64,000 nucleotides of DNA from Alphaproteobacteria bacterium (GTDB taxonomy: Bacteria > Pseudomonadota > Alphaproteobacteria > CADEGL01), in NCBI GenBank assembly GCA_050180485.1, contig JBFXED010000006.1, forward strand, positions 42,070 to 106,069, read 5' to 3'. Below the pieces are notes generated by a model. The model had not been told where the DNA came from, made no database searches, and saw only the letters and a program-made list of their open reading frames with translations. Positions 1,085 through 40,823 of the stretch are shown in pieces. The translations under genes were made by a program, and so were the position numbers. Position 1 is the first letter of the stretch, and every line of letters starts with the position of its first letter.

Positions 1085-2335
1085 ATGCGCATTCGTCCGC
1101 ACCGCTGGACCACGAAGCTAGGCCAGGAGCGGCGTGGGTTCATGCTCGACCTTGGCATCGACAAGGCGTCAAAAAAGCGTATCCGCAAGCTTTTCCCCTC
1201 GCGCCAAGCCGCTAAGTCATGGCTAGAAACCAAGCAAGACGCCAAGGCAACCGTCGCGGCGGAGACGGTGCTGGGCCCTAGGGTAGCCGAGGCTTACAAC
1301 CGCTGGGTCAAGCGTGTGGAGGCCGATGGCCGCGCCCGCTCGACATGGTCCACCTACGCCCAGCGTGCGAACAACCACGCCATACTCGCGCGGGTGAAAC
1401 TGGATAAGGATGGCGAGGAGCGCGTGTTTGGAGAGCTGCGCGTGGCCGAGGTGACGACAACGGCCTGCGTGCTGTTCAAGGCGGCGCTGCAGGCCAAGGG
1501 CCTGTCGCCCGCCATGGTGGGCAAGGTGATGTCCGACCTTCGCATGATGCTCAACGACTGCATCCTGCAGGGTGACCTCAAATCCAACCCCGGCACGCCA
1601 GTCAAGACCAAGCGTGGTGAACGTCACAAACGCAAGGTGGAGATCCCGACACCGGCCGAAATGCGGGGGATACTGGAGATAGTGAACGCCGCGGGAATCG
1701 CCCGACCGACCCGAGGACAAGTGTTTGTAAACTTCCAGCCGCGCACCGGCCTGCGTCCCAGCGAAACTCTGGCGCTAGCTTGGTCGCATATCGCGCTCGA
1801 GGCCCACCAGCCCTTCGTCCGCGTCGAGCGGGCGATTGACGCCTGGGGCAATTTCGGCCCTCCCAAGAGCGCGGCGGGCTATCGCGACGTACCGCTCCCA
1901 GCTGACTTGGTCGAGATACTGCTGGCATGGCGCAAGGTCTGCCCGAAGTCCGAGCATGGGCTCGTGTTCCCGACCTCGGAAGGTCATCCCGATTCGCAGA
2001 GCAACCTGCGCGCACGCGTCTGGCTACCATTGATGCAGGCAGCCGGCCTGGCTATACCGCTCGACAAGCCCTTGCGCGCCTCGATGCGATCGGCCGCGCG
2101 GAACCAGCGCGCCGGCACCGAGACACTATGGAGCCTGCGCTATACCGTCTACGCCATGCGGCATTTCTACGCATCCGCGTTGATCATCGCGCAGGGCCTC
2201 GTACCCAAGAAGGTCCAGGAAATGTTGGGCCACGACTCCATCCAGGTCACCATGGACACCTACGGCCATCTCTGGGCCGACCCGCAAGGCGATGCGACCG
2301 TGGCCAAGCACCTGGCCGCGTTCCTCGCGGCGTAG
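1085..2335 (+). CDS. tyrosine-type site-specific integrase (phage/island integrase)
   Basis: 416-aa ORF. The C-terminal catalytic region carries the R...HxxR...Y signature (...MRHFYASALIIAQG...HDSIQVTMDTYGHLW). It sits 148 bp from the 3' end of a tRNA gene. The alternative start at Met20 (1142) is possible. Confidence 0.85.
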   Translation: MRIRPHRWTTKLGQERRGFMLDLGIDKASKKRIRKLFPSRQAAKSWLETKQDAKATVAAETVLGPRVAEAYNRWVKRVEADGRARSTWSTYAQRANNHAILARVKLDKDGEERVFGELRVAEVTTTACVLFKAALQAKGLSPAMVGKVMSDLRMMLNDCILQGDLKSNPGTPVKTKRGERHKRKVEIPTPAEMRGILEIVNAAGIARPTRGQVFVNFQPRTGLRPSETLALAWSHIALEAHQPFVRVERAIDAWGNFGPPKSAAGYRDVPLPADLVEILLAWRKVCPKSEHGLVFPTSEGHPDSQSNLRARVWLPLMQAAGLAIPLDKPLRASMRSAARNQRAGTETLWSLRYTVYAMRHFYASALIIAQGLVPKKVQEMLGHDSIQVTMDTYGHLWADPQGDATVAKHLAAFLAA

Positions 2336-2482: not shown

Positions 2483-2558
2483 TGGTAGCGGCGGAGGGAC
2501 TCGAACCCCCGACCAAAGGATTATGATTCCTCTGCTCTACCAGCTGAGCTACGCCGCC
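2483..2558 (-). tRNA. tRNA-Met (anticodon CAT; elongator-type, could be tRNA-Ile2 if lysidinylated)
   Basis: The reverse complement reads GGCGGCGTAGCTCAGCTGGTAGAGCAGAGGAATCATAATCCTTTGGTCGGGGGTTCGAGTCCCTCCGCCGCTACCA. It has a 7-bp acceptor stem, a D-loop AGCTGGTAGAGC, an anticodon loop AUCAUAA (CAU), T-arm GGTTCGAGTCC, and an encoded CCA. Confidence 0.9.
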
Positions 2559-4556: not shown

Positions 4557-5678
4557 TCAGGCGGCCTGCGCCGCTTCCTCGCGCAGGATCCAGCCACCGC
4601 CAAGGACGCGGTCGCCGTCGTAAAAGACGCATGCCTGCCCCGGCGCGATGCCCTGCTGCGGCGCGTCCAGCGCGACGTCGACACCGCCACCCGGCAACGG
4701 GTGAAGCGTGGCGTCCGCCGCTGGCGCCGTCGCGCGCAGCTTCACCCGCACCCGCGCGCCTTCGGGCGGCGCGTCATGCGCGCCAAGCCAGTTCACCGCG
4801 CCGAGACGCACGCGGTCGCGGCCCAGCGCCGCGCGCGGCCCGACCACCACCCGCCGCCGCGTAGGCTCGAGCCGCACCACGAACAGCGGTTCGGACGACG
4901 ACAGCCCGATCCCGCGCCGCTGGCCGATCGTGTAATGGATGATGCCCTCGTGACGGCCGAGCACGCGCCCTGAAAGATCGACGATCTCGCCGGGTTCGGC
5001 GGCGCCCGGCCGTAGCTTCGCGACCAGCCGCGCATAGTCGCCGTCCGGCACGAAGCAGATGTCCTGGCTGTCGGGCTTGGATGCCACCGGCAGGGCGAAG
5101 CGCCGAGCCAGGGCGCGCGTCTCGTCCTTGGACAGGCCGCCCAGGGGAAAACGCAGGAAGGCGAGCTGCTCGCGCGTGGTGCGGAACAGGAAGTAGCTCT
5201 GATCGCGTGTCTCATCGGCCGCACGGTGCAACTCGGCGCCTTCGGAGCCGTCCGCGCGGCGCACGTAATGGCCGGTGGCTAGCGCGTCGGCATCGAGGTC
5301 GCGCGCCGCCGTCAGAAGGTCGCGGAACTTGACCGTCTGGTTGCACAAGACGCACGGAATCGGCGTCTGCCCGGCGATATAACCATCGGCGAAGGGCGCG
5401 ATCACCTCGTCGTGAAAGCGCCGCTCGTAATCGAGCACATAGTGGGGAATGCCTAGCGCGTCGGCCACCCGCCGCGCGTCATGGATATCTTGGCCCGCGC
5501 AGCAGGCGCGCGATTTCCCGACTGCCTGCCCATGGTCGTAGAGCTGCAAGGTGATGCCGACCACCTCGTAGCCCTGCTCCACGAGCAGCGCGGCCGTGGT
5601 GGCGCTGTCCACGCCACCCGACATGGCCACCACGACCCGCGTGGCAGCCGGCGCCTTGTCGATGCCCAAGCCGTTCAT
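4557..5678 (-). CDS. mnmA: tRNA 2-thiouridine(34) synthase MnmA
   Basis: 373 aa. It has the PP-loop SGGVDS and catalytic-Cys motifs ([17 protein letters not shown]...[15 protein letters not shown]). Colinear with MnmA throughout. Confidence 0.9.
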
Positions 5679-5795
5679 GGCGGGGACTATAGACGCAAGC
5701 CACGCCAGGACAAGCGAGCGGGCGTTGGCGGCGCCGGGAAAGTGCGTAAGATGCGCCGCGCCCGGGCTGGCCCGGGTTTCCGAAGGGGATGCACC

Positions 5796-6077
5796 ATGGG
5801 ATTTTCGCGCCGCCTGGCGGCTTTTGCCCTCGCGGCTGCGCTCGCCGGCTGCACCAACATGAGCGTGCCGCCCGGCACGCCCGCCTTCCAGGCGGGCTAC
5901 AAGGACGGCTGCCGCTCGGCCTGGGCGGATGTCGGCGTGCGCGGCTATAATGAGCGGGTCGAGGACGAGAAGATGAAGGTCAACGCCGAGTATCAGGCGG
6001 GCTGGGGCCGTGGCTACGGCGAGTGCTTCTCGGTCGACCAGCGCACGACCCGCAACCGCGACATGGGCTCTGGATGA
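5796..6077 (+). CDS. small Cys-containing lipoprotein, paralog 1 of tandem family (93 aa)
   Basis: ATG 5796 with AGGGGA upstream. Signal peptide with lipobox LAGC, then [15 protein letters not shown]...[14 protein letters not shown]. The stop TGA overlaps the next start (ATGA). Confidence 0.75.
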
Positions 6078-6358
6078 TCAGGCGTGCCGGCTTCGCATTC
6101 ATATGTCTTCTGGCGCTGACCGCGTGCGACACCGGCCGCGGCGCGCCGTCCTGGGCGCCGCCGGGTTCGCCGTCGTTCAAGACCGGCTATATCGACGGCT
6201 GCTGGACCGGATGGGGCGTCGCGGGCAAACCCAGCTTCGAGAACGCCTACTACAAGGACGATGGGCGGTATTTATCCGATCCAGACTACAAGCGCGGTTG
6301 GGACGAAGGGCAGGCCGATTGCTACCAGCAGCAGATGAGCTCGCCCCAGATGGGTTAG
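6074..6358 (+). CDS. small Cys-containing lipoprotein, paralog 2 (94 aa)
   Basis: [18 protein letters not shown] lipobox, then [20 protein letters not shown]...[16 protein letters not shown]. The start overlaps the paralog-1 stop. Confidence 0.75.
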
Positions 6359-6645
6359 GCCGCGCGGCGCGGCGTATCGGCGCCTTCGCCTTGGCCGCGC
6401 TCCTCTCCGCCTGCGAGGCGGTCGGCTCGATCCCACCACCCGGCTCGGACGCTTTCCAGCGCGGCTATATCGACGGCTGCTGGTCGGGTTGGGGCCTGGC
6501 CGCCAAACCCGGCTTTGAAGCGTTGTTCTACCGCAACGAATCGCGCTTCTCGTCCGATGAGGAGTATCACGCTGGCTGGGTCCAGGGTGAGTTGGAATGC
6601 TATAATCAACAGATGAACTTTCCCACCATGGGCGCCGCGAAATGA
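6319..6645 (+). CDS. small Cys-containing lipoprotein, paralog 3 (start uncertain; possibly decaying)
   Basis: Mature part PPPGSDAFQRGYIDGCWSGWG...EYHAGWVQGELECYNQQ with lipobox LLSAC. No ATG or GTG lies in frame near the signal peptide. The nearest in-frame start is TTG 6319, which overlaps paralog 2 by 40 nt. Confidence 0.5.
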   Translation: MLPAADELAPDGLGRAARRIGAFALAALLSACEAVGSIPPPGSDAFQRGYIDGCWSGWGLAAKPGFEALFYRNESRFSSDEEYHAGWVQGELECYNQQMNFPTMGAAK

Positions 6646-6956
6646 ATGCTTTTCCGTCGAACATGGTCCGCCATATCGCAATCGCGGGCGGCCTTTGCGC
6701 CATGACGATGCTGACGGCTTCCTGCAAGACCACGGGCTCCGGCGAGGTTCCGCCTGGCTCACCCGACTTCCAGGCGGGATATTCCGACGGCTGCGTCTCG
6801 GGCTATGGCGACGCGGGCCGGCGCGGCATGGAAGACGTGTTTGTTAAGAATACCGCCAGGTTCAACGGTAACCAGCAGTACCACGAGGGTTGGTTGCAGG
6901 GTTACGCCGCCTGTTATCAGTCCGAGGCCAGCCAGCCGATGATGGGTATCCGCTAG
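6642..6956 (+). CDS. small Cys-containing lipoprotein, paralog 4 (104 aa)
   Basis: ATG 6642 overlaps the paralog-3 stop (ATGA). Lipobox TASC. PPGSPDFQAGYSDGCVSGYGDAGRRGMEDVFVKN...YHEGWLQGYAACYQSE. Confidence 0.75.
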   Translation: MNAFPSNMVRHIAIAGGLCAMTMLTASCKTTGSGEVPPGSPDFQAGYSDGCVSGYGDAGRRGMEDVFVKNTARFNGNQQYHEGWLQGYAACYQSEASQPMMGIR

Positions 6957-7052
6957 CATGCCTGCCGGCTTTCAGTGTGCTGGCCGTTACGCCCGCCAGC
7001 TTGTACAAACGCTTCTGAACGTCATCTCGAGGAAAACACAGTGACTCAAGCG

Positions 7053-7355
7053 ATGAAGATCCGCCTCCGGCAGGTGGCCGCTGCATGCGCGATTTTTGCC
7101 ATGAGCGCGTCGGTGACCGCGTGCAAGACCACTGGCGCGGGCGATGTTCCACCCGGCCCACCCGATTTCCAGGCGGGCTATTCCGACGGCTGCGATTCCG
7201 GCTACGGCGACGCCGGCCGGCGCGGCATGGAAGACGTGTTCGTAAAGGACAGGGTCAAGTTCAACAACAACCAGGAATACCACGAGGGTTGGCTGCAGGG
7301 TTATGCCGCCTGTTATCAGTCCGAGGAAAACCAGCCGATGATGGGCCAGCGCTGA
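7053..7355 (+). CDS. small Cys-containing lipoprotein, paralog 5 (about 85% identical to paralog 4)
   Basis: MKIRLRQVAAACAIFAMSASVTAC. The alternative start GTG 7041 lies 7 nt after GAGGA. The mature sequence is nearly identical to paralog 4. Confidence 0.7.
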   Translation: MKIRLRQVAAACAIFAMSASVTACKTTGAGDVPPGPPDFQAGYSDGCDSGYGDAGRRGMEDVFVKDRVKFNNNQEYHEGWLQGYAACYQSEENQPMMGQR

Positions 7356-7390
7356 GCTGTCGTAATTCGGTAACACTTGGCATCGACACT

Positions 7391-7413
7391 CCCGCCCCTT
7401 CCAACGGGGCGGG
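7391..7413 (+). other. GC-rich hairpin (CCCGCCCC-N7-GGGGCGGG) between lipoprotein paralogs 5 and 6
   Basis: Perfect 8-bp inverted repeat with a 7-nt loop. No U-tract follows. It overlaps the probable paralog-6 ribosome-binding region. Confidence 0.4.
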
Positions 7414-7418
7414 AACCG

Positions 7419-7712
7419 GTGCGCACTCAAAACAATGTAACGAGGAAGCAGCTTTGCACCGCATGCTTGGTGCTGTCGTTGCTCGCGGGCTGTTCCCATC
7501 AGCCGCCTGGCTCGCTTCTGTTCGAGGAAGGATATACGGCGGGCTGCAGCGACGGAACGTTCGACGCGGGCGGGCCGTCCGACCAGGTCGAATACATGCG
7601 GGACGACACGCTGTACCGCACGAAACCCGACTATAAGAACGGTTGGCAGCAGGGTTACGCCAAGTGCTATCGCGACGCGACGGAGTATCCGGAGATGGAC
7701 AACCGGGGTTAA
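7419..7712 (+). CDS. small Cys-containing lipoprotein, paralog 6
   Basis: The first plausible in-frame start is GTG 7419 (MRTQNNVTRKQLCTACLVLSLLAGC). The start called by the ORF track is TTG 7377. Mature part PPGSLLFEEGYTAGCSDG...DYKNGWQQGYAKCY. Confidence 0.6.
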   Translation: MRTQNNVTRKQLCTACLVLSLLAGCSHQPPGSLLFEEGYTAGCSDGTFDAGGPSDQVEYMRDDTLYRTKPDYKNGWQQGYAKCYRDATEYPEMDNRG

Positions 7713-8005
7713 GACGCCCAGGGGTAAGACGCTCCGGCCTATTCCTATGGTTCGCGCTCGGCTTTGCAGTGACAGGATGTCATCAGGCGCCGGCGGGCAC
7801 ACCCAACTTCCAGGATGGTTATCATGCCGGCTGCGACGACGCGGCCGTCGATTCGCCGGGCGCGCAGACGGGTCAGACGACGTGGATGCGCGACGAAACC
7901 CGCATCGCCGGCCAGCCCGACTACAAGGAAGGCTGGTACCAGGGATACGTCGCCTGCTATCGCAAATGGCTCGAACATCCCTCGATGTCCAACACCGGCA
8001 CATAG
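7664..8005 (+). CDS. small Cys-containing lipoprotein, paralog 7 (start uncertain)
   Basis: Lipobox VTGC, then PAGTPNFQDGYHAGCDD...DYKEGWYQGYVACY. No canonical start lies between the paralog-6 stop (7712) and the signal peptide. The nearest in-frame starts are GTG 7664 and TTG 7643, both inside paralog 6. Confidence 0.5.
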   Translation: MLSRRDGVSGDGQPGLRRPGVRRSGLFLWFALGFAVTGCHQAPAGTPNFQDGYHAGCDDAAVDSPGAQTGQTTWMRDETRIAGQPDYKEGWYQGYVACYRKWLEHPSMSNTGT

Positions 8006-8289
8006 CCGTACGGCTGCTCACGCGCAGTGGCGCGTGGTTGGCGGTCGTGCTGATCCTGGCAAGCTGCTCCCGCATCCCGACGGGTTCGCCCGATTACCAG
8101 AACGGCTACACGGCCGGCTGCTATGACGGGCGCTTCGACGCGGACGCACCCACCACCCAGACGGCATGGATCCGCGATGAGTCCATGTTCGAGGCGAACG
8201 CCGACTACAAGAGCGGTTGGCAGGAAGCGTACGCGAAGTGCTACGCCGACGAGCGCGACTACCCGATCATGGGAACGATCGGACGTTGA
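7966..8289 (+). CDS. small Cys-containing lipoprotein, paralog 8
   Basis: ATG 7966 overlaps the paralog-7 3' end by 40 nt. Signal peptide ...AWLAVVLILASC, then PTGSPDYQNGYTAGCYDG...DYKSGWQEAYAKCY. Confidence 0.6.
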   Translation: MARTSLDVQHRHIAVRLLTRSGAWLAVVLILASCSRIPTGSPDYQNGYTAGCYDGRFDADAPTTQTAWIRDESMFEANADYKSGWQEAYAKCYADERDYPIMGTIGR

Positions 8290-8622
8290 TCAACCCAACA
8301 GCGCGTTGCGCGTGTTCTTGGGCAAGGCGACGGTCAAACCGTCGAGTTCTTCCGTCATGACGATCTGACAGCCGAGGCGCGAGCGGTCGGTGACGCCGAA
8401 CGCCAGGTCGAGCATATCGGACTCGTCCTCGCCCATCTTTGGCAACTTGCCCGCCCACTCCGGTTCGACATAGACGTGGCAGGTGGAGCACGCCATGGCG
8501 CCGTCGCAAGCGCCTTCGATGTCGAGCCCCGCGTCGCGGCCGATTTGCATCAGTGACTTGCCCACGGGCGCATCCAGTTCGCGCCGGGTTCCATCGGGTT
8601 GGATGACGATGATCTTGGGCAT
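8290..8622 (-). CDS. fdx: 2Fe-2S ferredoxin (adrenodoxin/ISC Fdx type)
   Basis: 110 aa with CxxxxxC..C...C spacing (GACDGAMACSTCHV...RLGCQI). Last gene of the suf operon. Confidence 0.85.
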   Translation of the reverse strand: MPKIIVIQPDGTRRELDAPVGKSLMQIGRDAGLDIEGACDGAMACSTCHVYVEPEWAGKLPKMGEDESDMLDLAFGVTDRSRLGCQIVMTEELDGLTVALPKNTRNALLG

Positions 8623-11171: not shown

Positions 11172-12454
11172 GCCGCCCTCCGCGCGCCCTGGGCGTCGTA
11201 AAGCCAATCGCCGACTGCGGCCGTGAAACGGTCGCGGATCGCTTCGTCCGCGATGCCGTCGATCATCTCGGACACGAAGGCCTCGATCAGCATGCCGCGC
11301 GCCTGTTCCAGGCCGATGCCGCGCGCGCGCAGGTAGAACAGCGCCTGTTCGTCGATCTCGCCGGCCGTCGCGCCATGACCGCACTTCACGTCGTCGGCGT
11401 GGATCTCCAACTCCGGCTTCGAGCCGATTTCGGCCCGGTCGGAGAGAAGCAGGTTTTCGTTGAGCTGGTGCGCGTTGGTCTTCTGCGCATCGGGACGCAC
11501 CACGATGCGGCCCTGGAACGCCGCGTAGGCGTGATCGTCCAGCACGCCGCGATAGCGCTCCTCGCTGTCGCAATGGGCGGCCGCGTGGTCGATGGTCGTG
11601 GTGTTGTCGACATGCTGGCGGCCGCGCGCGAGATAGGCACCCTCCAGCTTTACCTTTCCGCCCTCGCCCTTCAGCACGGCGTCGATCTCGTTGCGGGCCA
11701 GCTTGCCGCCAAGCGACAGAACGAAACTGTCGAAGACGCCCTTGGTCGCGACATGGGCCGCGGTGGCCGCCGTATGGAACGCTTCGCCGCCTTCGGTCTG
11801 CAACTTCAGATGCTTGAGCGTCGCTGTGGAAGCGATTGAAACGTCCGTGACCGCGTTGGTCCAATAGCGGCCCGTCCCGGCATAGGTTTCCAGGACCGTC
11901 GCCGAGGCGCCATCGCCCAGCGAAATCCGGTTGCGCATATGGGCAGCGCCGGACGCGCCGAGGAAGATCAGGTGAACTGGCGCCGCCAGCGCGACACCGC
12001 CGGGTATGTCGAGGATCGCGCCATCGGCGGCATAGGCGGCGTTCAACGCGCGCATGGCACCGGCGTCCGCGGCCTCCGCCAACAGATCATTCGGCAGCAC
12101 CTTCGACGCGGACCAGCCCGTCAGGACCACACCCTTGGGCAGCGTGCCAATGCGCGAGAGATCGGCGCGGAAGCGCCCGTCGACGAAGACCAGCTGATGA
12201 TGGGCGTGGCTGGTGGACAGGGCATGGGCGGTCACGGTTGCGGCCGTGACGGCGATCTTGGCGTCCGACGGCGCAAGCGCGGCGTCGTCCAGCGCCTTCA
12301 GGCTGGTGAAATGCCAGGCCTCGAGCTTTGGCGTCGGCACGCCGAGCTTGGCGTAGCGGGTCAGCGCATCGGCGCGCGCGCGCGCATCGCCCGGCAGGCC
12401 GGCCTTGGCGGCCTCGAACCGGTCCAGATGCAGCGCGTGGGTGGTGGCGCTCAT
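11168..12454 (-). CDS. sufD: Fe-S cluster assembly protein SufD
   Basis: 428 aa. Colinear with SufD, with 4-nt overlaps to sufC and sufS. Confidence 0.85.
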   Translation of the reverse strand: MSATTHALHLDRFEAAKAGLPGDARARADALTRYAKLGVPTPKLEAWHFTSLKALDDAALAPSDAKIAVTAATVTAHALSTSHAHHQLVFVDGRFRADLSRIGTLPKGVVLTGWSASKVLPNDLLAEAADAGAMRALNAAYAADGAILDIPGGVALAAPVHLIFLGASGAAHMRNRISLGDGASATVLETYAGTGRYWTNAVTDVSIASTATLKHLKLQTEGGEAFHTAATAAHVATKGVFDSFVLSLGGKLARNEIDAVLKGEGGKVKLEGAYLARGRQHVDNTTTIDHAAAHCDSEERYRGVLDDHAYAAFQGRIVVRPDAQKTNAHQLNENLLLSDRAEIGSKPELEIHADDVKCGHGATAGEIDEQALFYLRARGIGLEQARGMLIEAFVSEMIDGIADEAIRDRFTAAVGDWLYDAQGARRAA

Positions 12455-38588: not shown

Positions 38589-40823
38589 ATGTCTTCGACG
38601 ACGGCAGATCCCATCCCCCCGCTCATCGGACCGCTGCGCACTCTGCCTCGGACGGCGGAATGGGCGTCCGTCGACGGCACGTCCGCGCATTGGTCGCTGC
38701 AACCCATCGAGCCGGACGATCTCCCGCTGCCGCCCACAACCCGTGCGACGAAGCTTAGTGCAGCGCTATTTTGCTCGATTGGATTGCATTTCGCAGCCGT
38801 GACGCTGGTGGCGGCGGGCCTGCCCCATGTCGATCTGGATTGGCTCAAGCTGCATGACGCGCCCATCAAGCGCGTGGACGTCGTCTTTTACGATCCCACC
38901 GCCCCCGAAGAGGTGGCGCCGGGATCGGGCGTCGTCGCCCAGGAGCAAGCAAAACTCGGCTTGGGAAGCGCACAAACGCGCGGCCGCGATGCCGGGCGCA
39001 ACCCGACATCCTCGGAAGCGGATATGGCCCGGCCAAACGCACGACGCGTGGCGCACGGACAAGGGAAAGCCGGAGAAGGCGAATCCGCGCAGGCCAGCAG
39101 CGCGAAAACGGCGGCAAACGCCGCCACCGCCGCGAAGTCCAATTCGTCTCAGGCAATGGATGGAAAGGTCGACCGCAGCGAAAAAGCTGCCAGCGCGCGA
39201 AGCGAGCAGCCCCCCTCGGAAGCTGCCGCGACCGCGCAACCAGCATCGCGTACCGAATCCGGCGGCGCGGCCGCGAAGGGACAACCCGAAGGCACGGGCA
39301 GGGAGGACCGGGAAACGGCGATTCAGAAGCAGACCACGGGCGCACCGGAAAATGCCCCGCAGGTCTCCGGCGCAGCGGCCAGCAAAACGCAGGCACGCCC
39401 ATCCCCCCTCCTGGCATCGTCCCTGCCCATTCTCAACGAGCAGGAGTCCGGCAAGCCGAAGCAGGAGTCCGCCAAGGCGAAAGAGTCCATCAAGGAACCA
39501 CCGGAGTACGTCGTCGTAGCACGACCCCTGACCGCCGAGGATCCACCGCAGCAACCGCCTACGCCCAAGGAACAACAAACCGTGCCGCAGGCCTCCGATT
39601 CGACCGCGAAGCTTCAGAAGCAGTTGCAGGATCTGCGCGAGGACGGCGGGCCGTCGAATTTGAAATTGGCGGTGAAGACATCCGCGGGCGATGCGCTGTT
39701 ACCGGCAACAGGTGCAAGCAGCAGCAATAACTCCGGCGCGGCATCCGATGCCGCGCCCAATGCCAGCACCATCGCGCCCATCCGAGCGGCGCAGGCGATG
39801 CCGCCAGCGCCCGCGGAAAGCTCGTCGAATATCGCCATGAAGCTGATGCTCCAGACCATGCCCGGCCTGGACAGCACGCTGGCGGCGGCGATGGCCCATC
39901 CGAACACAGCGCCCGTCTCGCCGCCCACGCCGCGTCGCGAACAGGTCATCGCGCGGATGCAGAAAGCCGCCGACCGGGGTTATGCCCATGCCCAGTACGG
40001 CGTCGCGCGCCGCGAGCTGATCGGCCAGGGCGTTCCGCGTAATCCCGAGGCGGCGGCGGATCTGTTGGAACGGGCTGCACGCCAGGGGCATGCGACGTCC
40101 CAATTAGCCCTCGGCTACATGACGCTGAAGGGCTATGGCGTGAAGCAAGACAAGGCAGAGGCCCTGACCTGGCTGACCCTGGCGGCCCATCAGGGCAACG
40201 AAGACGCCGCGCGTGCGGCGGCGCTGATCGAACCCACCCTGACCGCGCAGGAATTGATCGCCGCCCGCCGTTCGGTCAGCGACTGGAAATCGGTGATGGA
40301 GCCGGCCACGACGCCCGCGGCAACGGAAGGCAAGACCGCACCGGAACGCGGCCCTCTTCAAGACGCTATCGCCCATGGCGACGTGGCCGCCGTCCGCGCC
40401 CTGATCGCGCGCGGCGAGGATGCCAATGGCCGCGACCGCGAGGGCCGCACGGCGATGATCAACGCCGGCTGGCGGGGCGACAGCGCCATCGTCGACAGCC
40501 TGCTCGAAATGGGCGCCGATCCGGATATTGTCGATAACGAAGGCCGCACGGCCATCATGTGGGCGGCCGGCAATGGCTATCCCAACGTCGTCGAGAAGCT
40601 GGCCAAGGCCGGCGTCGAACTGAATCTCAAGGACAAGGAAGGCCGCACGGCCCTTACCAGCGCGGCACTCAACGGCCACACCGACGTGGTGAAGGCGCTG
40701 ATCTCCAACAAGGTTGACCTGAACGCGCGAGACGACCGCGGCAAGACGGCGCTGGATTACGCGCTCAGGCAGAATTATCCGGACATCGTCCAGATTCTGG
40801 AAAAGGCCGGCGCGAAGCGCTGA
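38589..40823 (+). CDS. membrane-anchored Pro/Ala/Ser-rich protein with C-terminal Sel1 and ankyrin repeats
   Basis: 744 aa. One N-terminal TM segment (LSAALFCSIGLHFAAVTLVAAGL) and a ~350-aa low-complexity linker. Sel1 repeats (YAHAQYGVA..., HATSQLALGYM...). About 4 ankyrin repeats (GRTAMINAGWRGDSAIVDSLLEMGADPDIVDNEGRTAIMWAAGNGY...). Confidence 0.65.
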   Translation: MSSTTADPIPPLIGPLRTLPRTAEWASVDGTSAHWSLQPIEPDDLPLPPTTRATKLSAALFCSIGLHFAAVTLVAAGLPHVDLDWLKLHDAPIKRVDVVFYDPTAPEEVAPGSGVVAQEQAKLGLGSAQTRGRDAGRNPTSSEADMARPNARRVAHGQGKAGEGESAQASSAKTAANAATAAKSNSSQAMDGKVDRSEKAASARSEQPPSEAAATAQPASRTESGGAAAKGQPEGTGREDRETAIQKQTTGAPENAPQVSGAAASKTQARPSPLLASSLPILNEQESGKPKQESAKAKESIKEPPEYVVVARPLTAEDPPQQPPTPKEQQTVPQASDSTAKLQKQLQDLREDGGPSNLKLAVKTSAGDALLPATGASSSNNSGAASDAAPNASTIAPIRAAQAMPPAPAESSSNIAMKLMLQTMPGLDSTLAAAMAHPNTAPVSPPTPRREQVIARMQKAADRGYAHAQYGVARRELIGQGVPRNPEAAADLLERAARQGHATSQLALGYMTLKGYGVKQDKAEALTWLTLAAHQGNEDAARAAALIEPTLTAQELIAARRSVSDWKSVMEPATTPAATEGKTAPERGPLQDAIAHGDVAAVRALIARGEDANGRDREGRTAMINAGWRGDSAIVDSLLEMGADPDIVDNEGRTAIMWAAGNGYPNVVEKLAKAGVELNLKDKEGRTALTSAALNGHTDVVKALISNKVDLNARDDRGKTALDYALRQNYPDIVQILEKAGAKR

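Follow-up and report, generated by a model that had tools for sequence, protein, structure and literature searches.

What are the eight small genes that lie one behind the other between mnmA and the suf genes of an Alphaproteobacteria bacterium, and what might their products do in the cell envelope? We analyzed a 64-kb stretch of contig JBFXED010000006.1 (assembly GCA_050180485.1), termed the window, in whose positions coordinates are given unless a contig is named; the array occupies 5796-8289 of the plus strand. It comprises eight consecutive plus-strand open reading frames (ORFs), termed L1 to L8, the products of which can be aligned over their full length. Both the ORF map and the protein alignment agree with the initial annotation, which had placed eight paralogous same-strand genes at these positions. 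A hidden Markov model (HMM) of the family detected all eight copies across the window and no further one, with E-values of 1e-23 to 1e-30, and a 51-nt DNA motif recurs eight times within the array at a spacing of 278-399 nt. We hold it to be very probable that these are eight real, co-oriented and largely coupled genes of an undescribed but widespread family of small lipoproteins. The array and its presumed promoter region consist of the following features.

Divergent intergenic region, 5679..5795, no strand: reaches from the mnmA start (5678, minus strand) to that of L1; presumed to contain the array promoter.
L1, 5796-6077, plus strand: 93-residue precursor; lipobox LAGC, Cys19; mature domain of 75 residues; HMM E 3.6e-23.
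L2, 6074-6358, plus strand: 94-residue precursor; lipobox LTAC, Cys18, Asp at +2; HMM E 1.3e-28.
L3, 6319-6645, plus strand: 108-residue precursor from TTG 6319; lipobox LSAC, Cys32, Glu at +2.
L4, 6642-6956, plus strand: 104-residue precursor; lipobox TASC, Cys28; identical to NCBI protein AB7M05_19955.
L5, 7041-7355, plus strand: 104-residue precursor from GTG 7041, or 100 residues from ATG 7053; lipobox VTAC.
L6, 7419-7712, plus strand: 97-residue precursor, GTG start; lipobox LAGC, Cys25; dN/dS (ratio of nonsynonymous to synonymous substitution rates) 0.014; HMM E 4.6e-27.
L7, 7664-8005, plus strand: 113-residue precursor from GTG 7664; lipobox VTGC, Cys39, long n-region; dN/dS 0.09.
L8, 7966-8289, plus strand: 107-residue precursor from ATG 7966; lipobox LASC, Cys34; identical to AB7M05_19935; dN/dS 0.19.

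Coding status, packing and history of the array

In the eight proposed frames, the GC content at third codon positions (GC3) ranges from 0.68 to 0.86, compared to 0.83-0.87 for mnmA, fdx and sufA, whereas an antisense ORF of 362 residues (6987-8075) has a flat codon-position GC of 0.68/0.56/0.61. Comparison of orthologs gave dN/dS values of 0-0.19 against the RBC064 metagenome-assembled genome (MAG) and of 0.11-0.23 against a more distant contig. The two values are 0.15 and 0.23 for L1, which is the most divergent copy (GC3 0.86), 0.04 and 0.11 for L3, and 0.05 and 0.18 for L5. For L2, the mature proteins of the window and the RBC064 MAG are 100% identical, although the synonymous divergence (dS) is 0.21. 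The gene calls of NCBI and Logan concur for most copies, and the check on coding status by GC3 and dN/dS came out in favor of genuine genes, as first proposed.

Most paralog pairs are only 31-51% identical, with saturated synonymous sites (dS about 0.7-3.7). The exception is L4/L5, whose mature domains share 83% identity at a dS of 0.54, with 224 nt at 86% DNA identity. The low dN/dS among orthologs, together with the saturation among paralogs, indicates that the array is old and has been conserved copy by copy; each copy is under purifying selection, and the array is a product of old tandem duplication. The "diversifying" function once suggested for it finds no support in these values, since dN/dS stays at 0-0.23 for every copy and all paralogs except L4/L5 are saturated at synonymous sites. 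Pairwise identity and a rough neighbor-joining tree divided the copies into four groups, namely L1 alone (31-42% to the others), L2-L3 (51%), L4-L5 (83%) and L6-L8 (42-49%), instead of the three (1-3, 4-5 and 6-8) recognized at first, with L1 separate from L2-L3. A ninth, solo L2-like paralog (AB7M05_09250, P0019), which sits after kdpD-kdpE elsewhere in the same genome, groups with L2-L3 in the tree. In addition, an imperfect direct repeat at 7705-7731, GGGGTTAAGACGC / GGGGTAAGACGC, extends over the stop codon of L6 and the signal-peptide region of L7, and may have been left behind when duplication gave rise to L6-L8.

The copies are tightly packed. ATGA start/stop overlaps are present at 6074 (L1/L2) and 6642 (L3/L4), and overlaps of 40 nt at L2/L3 (6319-6358) and L7/L8 (7966-8005), all at the coordinates originally reported, in addition to a 49-nt overlap of L6/L7 that had escaped mention. 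This arrangement supports the packing of the array as one or two putative translationally coupled units. For L3, L7 and L8, the gap after the preceding stop contains no canonical start, and the start must sit inside the preceding gene. TTG 6319, located 40 nt within L2, is the sole canonical start that yields a complete L3 signal peptide, and the gene callers are split between 6319 and 6391. This TTG arises from an Asp codon of L2, which reads GAT in five out of five related genomes, despite a strong preference for G/C at third positions. GTG 7664 of L7 lies 49 nt within L6, and the ortholog P0018 has an equally long N-terminus with an ATG start; ATG 7966 of L8 lies 40 nt within L7 and is the start taken by the NCBI annotation (P0002). 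The three starts (6319-6321, 7664-7666 and 7966-7968) are located at or just past the "[DK]-C-Y" codons of the preceding gene (gaTTGc, aaGTGc and aaATGg), so that in each case a conserved protein motif also furnishes the start codon of the following gene.

A Shine-Dalgarno-like AAGGGGA is situated 7-13 nt before ATG 5796 of L1, and GAGGAA 7-12 nt ahead of GTG 7041 of L5. The promoter scan of 5679..5795 returned a sole sigma-70-like match, which is oriented toward mnmA, and the Rfam and promoter/terminator scans of the region found nothing associated with the array. At the distal end, the stop of L8 abuts that of the convergent ferredoxin gene (8290-8622, minus strand) at 8287-8292, with zero intergenic bases and no terminator-like site, so that convergent transcripts would collide or overlap.

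The array is flanked on one side by mnmA (4557-5678, minus strand) and on the other by fdx-sufA-sufT-sufU-sufS-sufD-sufC-sufB... (8290 onward, minus strand). The order of mnmA, array and ferredoxin-suf recurs in four further assemblies, giving five genomes in total. Comparison of copy number among these relatives, as the initial annotation had advised, revealed 5-8 intact copies at the same site, composed as follows.

Window array: L1 to L8 (eight).
RBC064 MAG array: L1, L2, L3, L5, L6, L7, L8 (seven).
SRP292972_co2_151 MAG array: L1, L2, L3, L5, L6, L7, L8 (seven).
LacPavin MAG (contig L021) array: L1 with an in-frame stop, L2 3' remnant, L3, L5, L6, L7, L8, then HigB/HigA.
SRR6877285 contig (L007) array: L1 to L5, a frameshifted L8-like remnant, then HigB/HigA.

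L4 is missing in three of the four related arrays. In LacPavin L1 (L021 9690-10010), the in-frame stop stands in place of the Tyr of GY.DGC; a selenocysteine reading of this codon was rejected, as the stop replaces Tyr, not Cys. Of LacPavin L2 (L021 10083-10409), only the 3' end is left, which still holds the L3 TTG start. The frameshifted remnant of SRR6877285 is located at L007 2009-2207. The HigB/HigA-type pair lies between the array and ferredoxin (L007 2462-3063 and L021 about 11745-12373), and is absent from the window and two relatives. These comparisons show that the copy number came to range from 5 to 8 as copies were lost or became pseudogenes and L4/L5 underwent one younger duplication or conversion.

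Lipoprotein signals and the predicted helical hairpin

The array proteins share the signal peptide and lipobox of bacterial lipoproteins in general (PS51257 signal; Lgt/LspA/Lnt pathway). The lipoboxes are exactly those of the initial annotation, and all eight pass a PROSITE PS51257-like rule, in which [LVI..][ASTVI..][GAS]C follows an uncharged hydrophobic stretch, as do 219 of 242 family members shorter than 150 residues. Seven copies combine a positive n-region with a lipobox Cys within residues 15-35, the Cys of L7 being residue 39 when counted from its only canonical start. The n-region of L3 has an overall net charge of 0, but RAARR borders its h-region. After cleavage by signal peptidase II and lipidation, the proteins would face the periplasm. 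An Arg-Arg pair, loosely reminiscent of Tat signals, is present in four of the eight n-regions (SRRL, IRRA, ARRI and VRRS; 5796-8100), with the rest of the twin-arginine consensus missing; these pairs probably just reflect the Arg richness of a GC-rich genome.

The mature part of 73-77 residues comprises a short Pro-rich tether (PPGxP), followed by two predicted long helices. It is acidic (isoelectric point 4.4-6.1), with 9-17% Gly and 11-16% aromatic residues, and contains exactly three Cys, including the lipid-anchor Cys, besides 0-3 His and 2-3 Met. Columns that are invariant in all eight copies are the lipobox C, P..G, GY..GC, Y..GW, the second C and a C-terminal M. Among 295 aligned family sequences, the lipobox Cys is conserved at 97%, the G of G[YW] at 95% and the GC of DGC at 100%; the corresponding values are 96-99% for Y..GW, 91% for the G four residues on and 100% for the second Cys. 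Both mature-domain Cys are present in 292 of 293 complete family sequences. The C-terminal Met, though invariant in the array, is not conserved across the family.

AlphaFold2 modeling, which the initial annotation had called for, was run on L5 and L8 and gave the same confident two-helix topology. The L5 model, built on a 32-sequence alignment, has a predicted local distance difference test score (pLDDT) of 88-98 at residues 31-90, with helices at 37-54, 67-72 and 74-92. The separate model of mature L8 (141 sequences) has a mean pLDDT of 84 and a predicted template modeling score of 0.72, with helices at 9-25, 39-44 and 46-65. They agree on an order of helix, short helix and helix, in which the core pLDDT is >90 and each long helix carries one invariant Cys. 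The half-motifs [FY]xxG[YW]xxGC and YxxGWxxG...C reside on the helices.

The internal duplication proposed earlier stands in part. Comparison of the N half against the C half using hhalign placed "..s..F..GY.dG" on "..D.DYr.GW..G" over 13 columns (probability 79%, P 1.6e-5), a modest signal that the halves are related, and each half has one invariant Cys. However, the Cys is offset unequally, by 8 residues past the aromatic residue in the first half and by 11 in the second. We infer that the two invariant Cys form a disulfide that would staple the helical hairpin.

The wider family and its genomic contexts

An exhaustive profile search over 1.84 billion cluster representatives (clusters at 50% identity) yielded 913 relatives at E<=1e-3, of which 150 reached E<=1e-10; almost all have 85-130 residues and a lipobox. 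The named members are all "hypothetical protein" (in UniProt, "Lipoprotein") and belong to Rhizomicrobium, Parvibaculum (Plav_0866) and unclassified Alphaproteobacteria MAGs. When the eight proteins were searched against Pfam, NCBIfam, PADLOC and PHROGs, no model passed its threshold, which bears out the earlier impression of an unrecognized family. The Pfam and NCBIfam scan of 143 relatives gave no family match, only ankyrin repeats in two fusions and weak Alvin_2107 and DUF2799 matches. Profile search of the PDB sequences gave a best E of 0.37 to a DUF1911 protein, which is non-significant. Based on these results, the family is undescribed in curated libraries and in the searchable literature, whereas small lipoproteins and paralogous lipoprotein arrays are themselves familiar.

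A working definition that all eight copies share consists of the lipobox, the P.G tether, [FY]xxG[YW]xxGC and YxxGWxxG...C, with the hairpin predicted for L5 and L8. Other architectures have 4-10 tandem repeats in one polypeptide, fusions to ankyrin repeats, or Pro/Ala-rich linkers with coiled-coil tails. Six relatives (P0041, P0046, P0093, P0096, P0103 and P0142) of 266-787 residues contain 4-10 tandem domain copies and are strongly basic; one multi-repeat relative has a His-rich N-terminal stretch, and at least one derives from a Campylobacterota MAG. As the net charge varies, from acidic in the array to strongly basic in the Campylobacterota-type repeats, the conserved feature is structural. 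The distant members P0133 and P0174 are ankyrin fusions, and the window itself encodes a 744-residue Sel1 and ankyrin repeat protein (38589-40823, plus strand).

Outside this lineage, six distant genomic contexts have one copy each and unrelated neighbors: Coq4 and a sulfotransferase in Rhizomicrobium-like genomes, where the family gene lies 12 nt downstream of the Coq4 homolog, DUF2336 in Parvibaculum, and ATP-binding cassette (ABC) transporters or insertion sequence elements in others. In Parvibaculum (L009) and in a MAG contig (L023), the homolog is followed by small genes that are unrelated to each other. Another subfamily was found at 39 soil and peat metagenome loci, 32 with a single copy and 7 with a tandem pair, none exceeding two. 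Only four neighbors recur there, all from one shallow clade: Ada, a hexapeptide transferase, a class A penicillin-binding protein (PBP) in convergent orientation, and UbiD. This PBP, with transglycosylase and transpeptidase domains, is convergent to the family gene at six loci, with UbiD beyond (L030 5944-8520, L031, L037, L039, L041 and L044). The PBPs of the six loci are 77-99% identical, so this synteny is shallow. Both the Coq4 and the PBP/UbiD neighborhoods look like shallow synteny, and are possible leads.

In tblastn searches of 72,556 plasmids and 50,697 phage genomes, L5 and a central family member had no match, by which a phage or plasmid origin was rejected. The eight-gene array is an extreme of a normally single-copy chromosomal family, and its position between mnmA and suf is lineage-specific. 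The functional tie to mnmA and suf that had been suggested is not borne out: only one lineage has this fixed position, the genes on either side lie on the opposite strand and have cytoplasmic products, and distant members have unrelated neighbors.

The rest of the window is ordinary chromosome, with genes for AnmK, TyrRS, a YhdP-like protein, a SurA-like peptidyl-prolyl isomerase, MoaA, NAD kinase and CoA-transferases, among others; no secretion-system, toxin or sulfur-oxidation gene is present in its 64 kb. Near its left end, a 416-residue ORF (1085-2335, plus strand) resembles, as judged by eye, a tyrosine recombinase of the phage-integrase type. It is close to tRNA-Met(CAT) (2483-2558, minus strand), and the GC content drops to 0.50-0.56 in the first 1 kb. 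Positions 1-2558 probably mark the border of an element that had integrated at this tRNA gene.

Candidate functions and significance

The conserved Gly, aromatic and Cys residues may serve as a scaffold. By contrast, variation among the paralog groups affects the inter-helix loop of ~20 residues, the exposed faces of the helices and the C-terminal tail, and could provide each paralog with its own partner. A shared scaffold with parts that vary by paralog group suggests that the eight copies are most likely subfunctionalised binding modules, acting as adaptors or inhibitors of different envelope partners and not as enzymes. The repeat proteins, the ankyrin fusions and the absence of a conserved charge fit a scaffold role, and the location beside suf and mnmA would be a historical accident. 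The function as a membrane-tethered binding module is put forward tentatively, and the whole reading, description and function together, is in our estimation an even call.

Several points weigh against it. The starts of L3 and L7 imply unusually long signal peptides of 32 and 39 residues. Across the six distant contexts and the 39 metagenome loci, no family-wide conserved neighbor points to a partner. For the proposed disulfide, simple counting of the antiparallel register leaves about one helical turn between the two Cys, and an invariant Cys pair would be expected of a reactive thiol pair just as much as of a structural disulfide.

The invariant Cys pair also underlies the alternative that survives best, yet is unlikely, in which the copies are thiol-based periplasmic carriers or redox proteins tied to mnmA and suf, the pair binding Cu(I) or another metal, carrying persulfide or polysulfide sulfur, or buffering oxidants. 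The placement of the array between mnmA and fdx-suf in five genomes would suit such a role, as would the His-rich stretch of one multi-repeat relative. So would a recurrent sub-threshold match of the second half-motif (Y..GW..GY..C) to NF049856, the Alvin_2107 family of globule sulfur oxidation proteins. L1 scores 26 bits (E 9e-6) against a cut-off of 60, and 14 of the 143 relatives match weakly, all under the cut-off (best E 1e-7). However, the match is confined to residues 51-74 of L1 on profile positions 3-26 of 59, L4 and L5 reach E-values of 0.3-0.9, and the other five copies give nothing; it is a shared local motif, not membership. The role assigned to Alvin_2107 itself derives from expression. 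One paper cites a homolog, in a figure legend only (PMC8269255). The literature on Alvin_2107, DUF2799 and paralogous lipoprotein arrays yielded nothing usable. In addition, the mnmA and suf products are cytoplasmic and their genes lie on the opposite strand, and the neighbors outside the lineage (Coq4/sulfotransferase, DUF2336, kdpDE, ABC transporters and class A PBP) are unrelated. The eight copies have no CXXC, thioredoxin-type fold or Met/His-rich motif of a thiol oxidoreductase or metal chaperone; the two Cys are ~40 residues apart, and the C-terminal Met is not family-wide. A more specific version is very unlikely, namely that the domain is a new periplasmic thiol carrier distantly related to Alvin_2107, which would bind sulfane sulfur or metal, so that the array would mark a hitherto unrecognized envelope branch of sulfur/Fe-S homeostasis in these Alphaproteobacteria.

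Another lipoprotein family, PF10973 (DUF2799) of proteobacteria, has a repeated motif of the [WY]..G..DG type that presumably resembles that of the array. It shares the lipoprotein context, and one of the 143 relatives matches it (E 2.4e-4); none of the eight copies does so, even at E<=1. DUF2799 is itself uncharacterized.

Next in plausibility, and improbable, is a structural component of the envelope, either a tether or filler like Lpp or an Lpo-like regulator of peptidoglycan enzymes, amplified for dosage or for several partners; it overlaps with the binding-module reading. Braun's lipoprotein Lpp is likewise small, with an all-helical mature part, and the array proteins are predicted to be small helical lipoproteins too. 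The class A PBP that adjoins the family gene at six loci of one soil clade, together with the multi-repeat polypeptides, is also in keeping with a structural role. However, neither Lpp nor any Pfam lipoprotein family resembles the array proteins in sequence. Compared to the trimeric coiled coil of Lpp, they are predicted to form a hairpin with an invariant Cys pair, and they have no conserved C-terminal Lys or Arg for cross-linking, with G, G, K, R, R, G, T and R as their final residues. The paralogs are only 30-50% identical, unlike a dosage amplification; the PBP synteny is shallow, and the convergent genes are not co-transcribed.

Last among the functional alternatives, and improbable as well, is an orphan immunity or decoy array, in which each copy would neutralize a different periplasm-acting toxin (amidase or lipase effectors of the type VI secretion system (T6SS), or bacteriocins) or block a phage receptor. 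T6SS effector immunity proteins of the Rap/Tai4 type are small, helical, disulfide-bonded periplasmic proteins in paralogous tandem sets, and the small, tandem, predicted periplasm-facing lipoproteins of the array would be analogous to them. Copy number differs between close relatives, with pseudogenes present, and HigBA has inserted at the same intergenic site in two relatives, suggesting a permissive hotspot; the DUF1911 protein is the top, though non-significant, PDB match. Nevertheless, neither sequence nor fold yielded a match. No effector, T6SS or bacteriocin gene occurs in the window or in any related locus, nor is a cognate toxin or secretion gene found beside the array, where the neighbors are mnmA, an AI-2E transporter, ferredoxin, suf and housekeeping genes. 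HigBA, for its part, is a toxin-antitoxin system of the cytoplasm rather than a toxin acting in the periplasm. Selection on every copy is strongly purifying rather than diversifying, and the divergence of paralogs is old, with no sign of rapid evolution. PADLOC gave no hit and PHROGs no significant one, tblastn found no plasmid or phage copy, and the family is mostly single-copy and chromosomal.

That the array is repeated DNA or a set of chance ORFs, which are frequent in GC-rich DNA and include here the 362-residue antisense ORF and several out-of-frame ones, is refuted by coding-type codon-position GC and by dN/dS far below 1, and deserves practically no credence in view of hundreds of independent HMM homologs, confident AlphaFold2 models and the concurring NCBI and Logan calls for most copies.

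What is new here is the domain family, its small predicted fold and the unusual eight-copy array; no surprising mechanism is involved. With at least 913 clusters at 50% identity and no Pfam or NCBIfam model, name, solved structure or fold relative, the family leaves a considerable gap in what is known of the alphaproteobacterial envelope proteome; related domains occur in Campylobacterota as well. Were its function trivial, the practical yield would be the definition of a new domain family, along with corrected starts for three genes. With its diverged but separately conserved variants of a single, very small and confidently predicted scaffold, the array is a convenient natural resource for finding binding targets, and the single-copy homolog of the cultivable Parvibaculum lavamentivorans (Plav_0866) makes the function genetically testable. 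To our knowledge, no Lpo-type regulators are known in Alphaproteobacteria; if the copies are adaptors or inhibitors of envelope enzymes, they could help to fill this gap.

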